A stretch of DNA of 64,000 nucleotides. Origin: Cirrosporium novae-zelandiae (Eukaryota). The position numbers were made by a program, and so were the translations under genes. The notes under the pieces are model-generated. The model was not told the DNA's origin and ran no database searches. It saw only the letters and a list, made by a program, of their open reading frames with translations. The stretch spans positions 1 through 64,000 of the forward strand of contig JAPETS010000070.1 of assembly GCA_026023565.1 (NCBI GenBank). Direction: 5' to 3'. Positions within the stretch are counted from its first letter, which is position 1. The number at the start of each line of letters is the position of its first letter. Positions 25,321 through 27,823 of this stretch are shown here, one piece after another.

Positions 25321-26287
25321 GTTTTAAAGAAATGGAGTTAAAGACTTCTGAAGGACTGTGAAGAACTGATATGCGAAATAAAATATAAGAAGTTTCATGG
25401 TTTATATACTTCCCGAACCTGAGCTATCTGAAAGACAGTCATTATGATCTTTGCTTGCCATAGATATTGCTATGTAATGAAGAGAACTGTAATCGACATT
25501 TATTTTTTGATTAATGATCCGTTGGCGTGTACCCAACTCCAGGACACAGACATGACAGAGTACATGATAGCAAGAAAGTACTGAAGAGGCAGTCAAGCAT
25601 TGTTCAAATGTGGAAATGGGTTCTCTTTTAGCTATTTGTGACTTGCCAAGATAAAATCCTTCCGTTTTAACCGTTGTTGCCGATATGATTGATTGGTTGA
25701 ACCAGCAAAAAAGTTTGGGGCAATTTGTTCCTCCATGACGAAGGGTTTGGTCAGCAATATAAGTAAAGATTCGGGTGGGGAAAATCCTCAAGTCGCGCTT
25801 TGTATCATGCCGAAATACGTAGTTGGCCTTCCTACTCGACCTATTACATTCAGCCATCGTCAAACGTTAGTAGCTTGACATGCGGTGCTTAAAATTTCTA
25901 CAAGGTAAATTAAAAGCGGACCTGATATCAAAAACGTACAGGATTTGAAATATTCAGTTTTGCGGTTTAGATGCAATTTTAAATATCCCAAAGATACTCG
26001 TGGACCGACTTTGTGAAGCAATCAATTAATCAGAATTTAGATAGCTGGAGAGCATCTAATTACATTCAACTGGAAAATTGCAGATAAAGGGTGTGCTATT
26101 ACATCTAGATTTTTCAATAACAATTCCGAGGCCAACAGCAGACCATCCAGAGACAGGGTGCTTGAGAAATGCCAGCGACCAAATCTGAGCAATGTCCACC
26201 ACAGGGGACATTTCGACTGGTTCTAGGGTTCTAGCTCGTTACGTGCAAACACCCTAAACCCACAAGGAGCTTGGTTTTGAAAACAGC

Positions 26288-26860
26288 TTAGATCATCAGT
26301 CTCTCTACTGTATTCTTCACAGCCCGAATTTGGCTTGTCAACTCGCTGGCCTCATTTGTGGTGATGCTTGCCGCTATAACTGGTCGACTGACTCCACATG
26401 CTCTTCCCAAAGCCATCTTGCTTGGAACGTAAACGTAGGGTACATTTTTATCTTCAGCGACTAGGGGAAGATGAAGGAGAATAGCCAAAGGAGACGTATC
26501 TGGATGAAGATGTCAGCGTGTTCAGAACGGTAGGGCCTTTAATGCCACGCCAGAAGAATAGTGAGGATCGCATCATACCAGCAGCAAGAATTATTATTTC
26601 TGAGATACCGCGATTCAAGGTTTTGGTAGCTGTTGGGTGGGTTGATCAGCCGTGTACTTCCCTAGAAATAGAGCCAAGATAATTTTACAAACCTTCGTTT
26701 GCGCCTTTCTTAAGCTGGCGGTAATGAGAGGCTTGTTGAACAAGATCGAGGATTGTTTGGGTGACGGCCTCATCGGCGATAGGCCAAGCTATTAATATGT
26801 CAGTCAATTGGTTTGACTGGCGCATGTTTAGGTGAGCTCACCAACGGATTGTTCAGACAT
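26288..26860 (-). CDS. SNU13: Snu13 / 15.5K L7Ae-family RNA-binding protein (U4 snRNP, box C/D snoRNP)
   Basis: [77 protein letters not shown] over four exons. Confidence 0.97.
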
Positions 26861-26885
26861 GATGTTAAAGCTTGATATTTGATGT

Positions 26886-26922
26886 CAAAGGGTTCACTGC
26901 CTCGTTTATGGCTCGCCCTTTG
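26886..26922 (-). promoter_or_regulatory. Kink-turn hairpin in the putative 5' leader of SNU13
   Basis: Minus strand CAAAGGG-C-GA-GCC-ATAAACGA-GGC-AGT-GA-A-CCCTTTG: 3-bp C-stem, 3-nt AGU bulge, tandem G.A/A.G pairs, 7-bp NC-stem. Confidence 0.75.
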
Positions 26923-27823
26923 CGCGAGTATGGTAATAAAGGTGGGAAGTATAGAGTGGATGAAAGATAGTAAAACGAAGCTGTGGAATATCAAACTAAG
27001 AGAAAAAAATTTAGGTGATGAGTAATGTAGCGCTAGACCTAGACAGGGAATAGTAATTAGCTTTAGCACAAAGTTACAGTGTTACAGGATTGTGTAAATA
27101 TCGGCATTTCAAAAATACCGACCGCCTAGCTTCACAAAACTATGACGAAGCCAGGTAAACATAATGTTGAATGGAGAATATTTTCATAGTTCTCGGCGCA
27201 AGCTTTAGTTATCCTGGAAAGGTTCCTGCAATCATTCAATGGGCGATTCAAAAATACAAAATACATATTAAAGAAGCACTCACATCAATGTTACTCAGGT
27301 TTCTACTCTCCTCAACCAAACTTGGTAGGCCTCCCCGAGTGATCATCGATGGTTGACATAGGGAACATCCATAGGAATTACTGCTATCAAACACATAGTG
27401 AAAGGATGTTTAGCATGATGTCGATTTTTAATTGATGACTAGACACTGAGAAGCACTATCACTGGCCCCCTTGAAGTGTCTCATGCTACCAGTTCTGGGA
27501 ACGCCAAGGATATTCAATCATCTTCAGTATTAACCGCGATTACTTACCTATCTAAAAAACCCCACCATTATCAACATAGCAGACCCATCGGTTACATCAA
27601 TCAACTGCACTGCTCTATCGGTTAGGGCGCGCCCTTCAGTTGAGATGTCTTGCCAAACTAGCACTTTGAAGATTTGTATGCATGTACCGATTTGGACATG
27701 TAGGTGTACTATATCTTCATTATAAATATCATTGATTTGTTGCGAGATGGAGATTTTTCTTCGCCATCCTTCCATTCTTCTTCCTCAATTTAGTTCAAGA
27801 ATATAAATATATTTCACTCCAAT

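Follow-up and report, generated by a model that had tools for sequence, protein, structure and literature searches.

The window, the whole 64,000-nt stretch of DNA that we analysed, carries a four-exon gene on its minus strand, preceded by a kink-turn (K-turn) hairpin. The gene model, which we checked, comprises 378 nt (125 codons plus the stop codon) in exon 1 (26842..26860, with the ATG at 26860-26858), exon 2 (26693..26788), exon 3 (26579..26629) and exon 4 (26288..26499, stop codon included). The introns are 53, 63 and 79 nt long and all three are bounded by GT..AG; intron 1, of 53 nt, starts with GTGAGC. The last exon matched Pfam family PF01248 at 2.5e-13 and encodes an L7Ae-family protein. 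When the last exon was searched against PDB, the best matches were Snu13 chains (5oql_V, 7e-29; yeast Snu13p 1zwz_A, 2e-28), and human 15.5K matched at 1e-25, whereas Nhp2 and archaeal L7Ae matched at about 1e-10 to 1e-12. Because the Snu13 chains matched far better than Nhp2 or L7Ae, the gene is SNU13, judging from the encoded sequence.

The hairpin is 37 nt long (26886..26922, minus strand), and a 25-nt spacer without an AUG (26861..26885) separates it from the start codon. Its non-bulged strand (26913..26922) consists of the 5' strand of the NC helix, CAAAGGG (26922-26916), a C at position 3n (26915) and the G-A dinucleotide of positions 2n and 1n (26914-26913). The C helix and its 8-nt loop, AUAAACGA, occupy 26899..26912 (GCC at 26912-26910, loop at 26909-26902, GGC at 26901-26899). 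The bulged strand (26886..26898) then provides the bulge AGU (26898-26896), the G-A of positions 1b and 2b (26895-26894), an A at 3b (26893) and the 3' strand of the NC helix, CCCUUUG (26892-26886). The hairpin has an NC helix of 7 bp, an A.C pair at 3b.3n, tandem G.A/A.G pairs and a C helix of 3 bp, and its -1b:-1n pair is C:G. By all sequence features, namely the 3-nt bulge, the tandem G.A/A.G pairs and the flanking helices, the element was confirmed as a standard (simple) K-turn. An earlier note on this DNA had proposed both the SNU13 gene and the hairpin. The PDB scores (7e-29 and 2e-28 for Snu13 chains versus about 1e-10 for Nhp2) bore out the former, and every coordinate and part given for the latter agreed with the minus-strand sequence. 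The same note also proposed a close match to rRNA Kt-7.

To describe such hairpins we used our own descriptor, which asks for a purine at L2, a U at L3, C:G or G:C at -1b:-1n, a non-Watson-Crick 3b.3n, a Watson-Crick 4b:4n and a loop of 3-30 nt. On both strands of the 64-kb window, the element was the sole match with at least 8 helix pairs; it has 10. Sixty dinucleotide shuffles yielded on average 0.7 matches per 128 kb at this threshold and 0.1 at 10 or more pairs. A weaker K-turn-like hairpin at 4323-4296 (minus strand; 4-bp C helix, 3-bp NC helix) was within chance expectation at its own threshold (1.7 per window in shuffles). Nearest-neighbour folding, which does not score the G.A core of a K-turn, was ordinary for the element (-13.1 kcal/mol, z -1.6), and 17 of 200 shuffled sequences folded equally well. 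In a 161-nt context the z-score was -1.0 and the minimum-energy structure lost the hairpin; the z-scores of six relatives ranged from -2.2 to +1.2.

When positions 25800-27800 were searched with Rfam, no family matched the element at E values up to 10; the lone match, an H/ACA family away from the element, was at chance level (E 6.3). A box C/D snoRNA was considered and rejected, given the length of 37 nt, the lack of a guide region, boxes reading AGUGAAC and GCGA, and the lack of an Rfam match. In such snoRNAs a terminal C box (RUGAUGA) and D box (CUGA) flank a guide, and the length is typically more than 60 nt (preprint 10.64898/2026.08.03.742641).

We collected SNU13 loci from metagenome contigs with the last exon as query. 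Among 592 candidate stretches 319 were confirmed and the best 80 were kept, in 78 of which the N-terminal exon was placed by tblastn; the loci are metagenomic and not phylogenetically independent. In the 260 nt upstream of the start codon, the same two boxes were found in many loci, on the sense strand every time. An alignment of 12 leaders displayed the element as a sharp island of identity between unalignable flanks. Further, 24 of the 35 A.C-type loci had the word GGGCGAG in their leaders, with 29 occurrences in total compared with 0.58 expected.

We aligned 21 hairpin-form elements from 19 loci, excluding the window (alignment A1), and built a covariance model, R1, from them. Against both strands of the 64,000-nt window, R1 gave a single match, at 26884-26924 (36.5 bits, E 6.5e-8). 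Since a model built without the window matched it once, exactly there, the K-turn element upstream of SNU13 is, on this evidence from sequence, not a product of chance. Against the best 80 of the 319 loci (314,854 nt, both strands), R1 gave 25 matches with E <1e-3, all 25 on the sense strand immediately upstream of SNU13, and the sole match outside a leader had an E value of 1.5. Nineteen of these 25 loci had supplied seeds and six were near-identical to seeds; the independent results of R1 are therefore the match in the window and the absence of matches elsewhere. One locus that was not a seed (L013) had an R1 match where expected, at E 0.26.

The G-A dinucleotides were invariant in all 21 A.C-type and all 11 U.U-type aligned elements, as were the two C-helix pairs that adjoin the core (G-C and C-G) in 21 of 21 aligned elements of other loci. 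The C-helix loop differed among loci in length and sequence, and the bulge was AGU in 12 of the 21 aligned elements and AAG in nine. Covariation in the A.C type was modest (0.161 versus 0.103 in shuffled alignments; 3 of 500 shuffles were as high). Only the inner three NC pairs were widely kept, and the conservation was mainly one of primary sequence. Many relatives had a C helix of only 2 bp closed by a loop of just 2-4 nt, a sterically marginal arrangement. G.U pairs were present on the sense strand among the elements.

The bulged K-turn strand of the window has a possible alternative partner, the exon 1/intron 1 junction (26901-26835, minus strand; 5' splice site G/GUGAGCU). The product would be a permuted K-turn whose loop holds the AUG, and in this it would resemble RPL30. 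This alternative was not conserved. As the 5' splice sites of the closest loci (L004, L001 and L002) differ from that of the window, the pairing is probably coincidental.

By our own classification, 52 of the best 80 (of 319) loci carried a family-supported K-turn, i.e. 52 of the 73 assessable loci, and always on the sense strand. The A.C-type hairpin of the window was found in 27 loci (25 by R1, plus L013 and L029), and the U.U type, which is box C/D-like, in 16. Three loci (L002, L058 and L078) had a circularly permuted form, in which the bulged strand comes first, the NC helix is capped and the C helix is extended; in these forms the extended helix is again the outer one. Four loci had a nested double K-turn (L006, L007, L018 and L025), one only an intron-split form (L048), and one, the closest relative of the window (L004), only the 3' half, at a contig end. 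Single-locus candidates were present at 10 loci (L003, L022, L041, L046, L050, L068, L073, L074, L076 and L077). No element was found in 11 of the 73 assessable loci, including the Ascomycota-type L047, in which 700 nt were searched. Seven loci lay outside the assessable set (five with <80 nt upstream and two in which no N-terminal exon was found).

The U.U type consists of a C helix of 3-6 bp, the bulge, G-A, U.U, one C-G pair and a short loop. A regular-expression descriptor of this type gave 17 matches in leaders compared with 2.0 expected. A second model, R2, built for the U.U type, gave 16 matches with E <=0.0011, all in leaders, and also matched L007 (0.0038) and L025 (0.044); it matched nothing in the window, and every other match had an E value of at least 0.68. 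Covariation in the C helix was 0.429 compared with 0.143 after shuffling, a value that none of 500 shuffles reached (slid controls, <=0.127), and six of seven pairs changed on both sides; because a filter requiring three C-helix pairs was used to choose the rows, the pairing of these three is partly by construction, and the orthologous position is independent of the filter. Further, a sequence-independent "Snu13-optimal" descriptor had 14 matches in 16,779 nt (65 non-redundant leaders) compared with 1.21 expected from a background of 473,196 nt (11.6-fold, Poisson 5e-11); this descriptor and the U.U regular expression are strict ones, fixed after the data had been seen. They replaced a looser, generic K-turn descriptor because the background of the latter was too high, with leaders enriched just 1.2- to 2.5-fold.

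In the nested double K-turn, found around the SNU13 AUG (L006:2617-2659, L007:15-60, L018:1309-1365 and L025:2609-2661), the two bulged strands lie 5' in the leader and the two non-bulged strands lie 3' in the first codons, M-S-E-A-V-N-P. The AUG is in the terminal loop, and the NC helix of the outer kink is the C helix of the inner one. The bulges vary among these loci and the cores are invariant.

In seven loci a putative leader intron (42-112 nt, GT..AG) lies at the K-turn bulge, with its 5' splice site in the bulge (L016:313-360, L019:2713-2760, L028:1923-1970, L048:92-144, L045:2630-2714, L044:2606-2717 and L067:2606-2657). Several of these introns have a branch-point-like CTRAY. Removal of the intron restored the K-turn consensus in all seven, and the spliced NC helix of L048 has 9 bp. 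Several loci contain tandem elements (L059:2739-2800 and L063:2166-2223) with C-helix loops of 2-3 nt, and their middle strands could pair mutually, giving two back-to-back kinks on a shared C helix. Loss of a single outer strand from such a tandem array would explain the permuted forms.

The locus that R1 matched at E 0.26 encodes a Snu13 identical to S. cerevisiae Snu13p (1zwz_A) at 126 of 126 residues. Its element (L013:2743-2797), with an AAG bulge and a loop of 28 nt, stops 35 nt short of the AUG. The element thus extends to a locus of the S. cerevisiae type, as well as to two or more further architectures, and is, as far as these sequences indicate, not peculiar to filamentous fungi. Deep conservation beyond fungal-type groups was not established: in 27 other loci the non-bulged-strand word GGCGAG lacked significant enrichment, occurring six times compared with 2.9 expected (P 0.07). 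The enrichment of the bulged-strand word in the 27 loci was explained by the V-N-P codons.

The first AUG after the element was the SNU13 start codon in 41 of 42 loci, whereas 21.4 AUG-free spacers were expected. The spacer had a median length of 42.5 nt (range 3-236), the shortest being that of L017 (3 nt). Further, one locus resembles a cDNA (L056:1-1100): it lacks introns, terminates in 12 A and has a leader of 274 nt, in which a U.U-type element lies at 137-165, 112 nt before the AUG. The AUG-free spacers, the 3-nt spacer and the cDNA-like locus, all from relatives of the window, indirectly favour the inclusion of the element in SNU13 mRNA. Its orientation, the complementarity of the boxes across architectures, the G.U pairs and the consensus restored by splicing favour an element that acts as sense-strand RNA.

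The K-turns bound by Snu13p/15.5K have a bulge of 3 nt that is closed by G.A/A.G pairs (Clery et al., 2007, PMC1874613). The nucleotide at position 3 of the bulge enters a pocket of the protein and its mutation is deleterious, and affinity is higher when position 2 is A or G (PMC1874613). The pair above G.A is a non-Watson-Crick pair, and U.U was preferentially selected in SELEX with Snu13p (PMC1874613). The AGU bulge of the window agrees with these preferences, having 3 nt, U at position 3 and G at position 2; the pair above G.A, A.C, is non-Watson-Crick but not the U.U preferred in SELEX. The U.U group (16 loci) fits the preferences fully, and nine of the 21 aligned relatives, with G at bulge position 3 (AAG), fit Snu13 less well. 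From this published specificity we infer that Snu13 is the binder of the leader K-turn.

A K-turn folds in metal ions alone when 3b is C or 3n is G and -1b:-1n is C:G (Huang, Ashraf and Lilley, 2019, PMC6298567), and C:G is the commonest natural form of the latter pair (PMC6298567). The 3b:3n pair of the window, A:C, has neither C at 3b nor G at 3n, so that protein should be required for the kink to form. It is thus doubtful that ions suffice to fold the K-turn in the window, and its sequence makes it plausible that folding depends on protein, as it would in a switch.

The earlier note had held that Snu13/15.5K binds K-turns with a protruding bulge U and that its relatives autoregulate through K-turns in their own transcripts, and it had named beforehand a lack of conservation of the GA/GA core and bulge as what would refute the idea. 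The core and bulge proved strongly conserved in relatives, by R1 and in the alignments; the published binding rules match AGU with tandem G.A/A.G (PMC1874613); and autoregulation of this kind is found in PMC5539422 for archaeal L7Ae and L30e. Archaeal L7Ae acts on the 5' UTR of l7ae, which carries a K-turn (Daume et al., 2017, PMC5539422; PMC6298567), and L30e controls how its own transcript is spliced and translated (PMC5539422, PMC3706390). Snu13 is the eukaryotic homologue of L7Ae, according to titles cited in PMC5539422 and PMC6298567.

Like SNU13, archaeal l7ae is an L7Ae-family gene with a K-turn in its own leader near the start codon, with a core predicted to need protein and with stems that vary among many lineages. 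In contrast, SNU13 has a eukaryotic capped mRNA that is scanned and has no Shine-Dalgarno sequence to occlude, it is a gene of an snRNP/snoRNP rather than a ribosomal protein, and some versions of its element are intron-split or permuted. Binding and repression have been shown for archaeal l7ae, whereas for SNU13 both are predictions from sequence. Yeast RPL30 is like SNU13 in encoding a eukaryotic L7Ae-family protein (L30e) and in having a K-turn close to the transcript 5' end, as is predicted for SNU13. However, the RPL30 site, which serves a different protein, is reported to be a small internal loop from which an A protrudes (PMC1874613), and it engages the 5' splice site, whereas the SNU13 element is a standard K-turn with a 3-nt bulge in a predicted untranslated leader.

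The SNU13 element resembles the 5' stem-loop of U4 snRNA, box C/D and the U3 B/C sites in its tandem G.A/A.G pairs and in its 3-nt bulge, the last nucleotide of which is U, and the U.U variant further resembles box C/D in having a U.U pair followed by a Watson-Crick pair. Unlike U4 and box C/D, the element of the window lies in a predicted mRNA leader, has a capped C helix rather than a capped NC helix, has A.C at 3b.3n, and lacks both a guide region and an Rfam match. A further parallel is NOP56, a core box C/D snoRNP protein with feedback through a K-turn RNA of its own transcript (a 2018 title cited in PMC8162545). In that case a whole intronic snoRNA directs alternative splicing (PMC8162545), whereas the SNU13 element is a leader K-turn of 22-40 nt and the core protein is a different one.

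The reading that we favour, at a probability of roughly 0.65, is negative feedback of Snu13 through the leader K-turn of its own mRNA. Free Snu13 beyond what is taken up by U4 snRNA and by box C/D and U3 snoRNAs would bind and fold the leader K-turn, and the bound K-turn would lower Snu13 synthesis. Most likely, 43S loading or scanning would be blocked on the spliced mRNA, an output step that we rank first because the split versions have the site only after splicing. The element lies 25 nt before the AUG in the window and at a median of about 42 nt in the other loci. That binding would repress, and at which step, we infer from archaeal L7Ae, yeast L30 and synthetic L7Ae/K-turn switches. Synthetic translation switches of this type are used in eukaryotic cells.

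Snu13 resides in the nucleus, so outputs other than a block of scanning in the cytoplasm are conceivable. Snu13 may bind the same K-turn with a nuclear effect, by retention, decay, splicing of the leader or intron 1, or formation of a snoRNP-like particle that yields a small, stable K-turn RNA in place of the mRNA. We consider such an output distinctly less likely than a block on the spliced mRNA. In its favour, Snu13 acts in the nucleus, seven loci have a putative intron within the K-turn whose 5' splice site lies in the bulge, and the bulged strand of the window (26901-26891) could form pairs with the intron 1 5' splice site. There are also precedents, in that L30e regulates the splicing of its own pre-mRNA (PMC5539422) and intronic K-loop RNAs bound by 15.5K suppress excision of the host intron (preprint 10.64898/2026.08.03.742641). 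However, the G.A core of the split cases exists only after splicing, which points to the spliced RNA; the 5' splice site pairing of the window is not kept in L004, L001 or L002; and most loci have no intron near the element.

It is improbable that the K-turn is functional but serves another binder (L30, Nhp2, eL8 or an assembly factor) or a role in localisation or co-translational assembly, and we know of no comparable positive use of such a K-turn. K-turn recognition is common to L7Ae-family proteins (PMC5539422, PMC1874613) and the frequent G at bulge position 3 suits Snu13 less, but in 314,854 nt of loci and the 64,000-nt window the element was found only beside SNU13, and the U.U type has the very pair preferentially selected in Snu13p SELEX (PMC1874613). 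We give very little credence to the view that the two conserved boxes are promoter elements in DNA, i.e. transcription-factor sites with an incidental likeness to a K-turn. The conservation of the A.C type, being mainly one of primary sequence, would suit such sites. The constant sense orientation would not, nor would the mutual complementarity kept in hairpin, permuted and tandem arrangements or the consensus restored by splicing alone in seven loci. The U.U type, moreover, has C-helix covariation and G.U pairs, the element of L017 ends 3 nt before the AUG, and the cDNA-like L056 contains the element.

In full-text literature searches, which covered papers other than subscription-only ones, and in Rfam, we found no description of a K-turn in the SNU13 transcript. 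SNU13 was absent from the main text of a survey of fungal structured RNAs (PMC8216456), the supplements of which might list the gene, and the main texts of two 2026 preprints on small RNAs bound by 15.5K mention no SNU13 leader or UTR. The kind of control that the sequence suggests, in which a K-turn of the mRNA serves to regulate the L7Ae-family protein that this mRNA encodes, is already known, and the SNU13 case would be new.

If feedback through the leader K-turn is correct, L7Ae/K-turn feedback would extend from archaea to a core eukaryotic RNP protein. SNU13 would be the second eukaryotic L7Ae-family case beside RPL30 and a natural counterpart of the synthetic L7Ae/K-turn translation switches. 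The intron-split variants and those that enclose the start codon would be unusual constructions of a protein-binding site in mRNA. Snu13 nucleates the U4 snRNP, U3 and all box C/D snoRNPs, and its free concentration therefore bears on splicing and ribosome biogenesis; our literature searches found no description of how this concentration is set.

More tentatively, the leader K-turn may be an ancient feedback device, derived from the archaeal L7Ae ancestor, kept in reshaped form across fungi and other eukaryotic lineages and providing a set-point of free Snu13 throughout eukaryotes; we hold this broader idea to be possible and rather doubtful. Under it, conserved N-terminal codons would double as K-turn strands, with the AUG in the nested loop (L006, L007, L018 and L025). 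Some lineages would have the binding site only after splicing of the leader intron, and feedback would therefore read spliced mRNA only. The set-point of free Snu13 would couple the assembly of U4 snRNP and box C/D snoRNPs to Snu13 synthesis.

Feedback by Snu13 on its own mRNA is readily testable in yeast, because the locus whose Snu13 is identical to that of S. cerevisiae carries the element. Farther upstream in the same locus there are words resembling the PAC and RRPE promoter motifs of ribosome-biogenesis genes.
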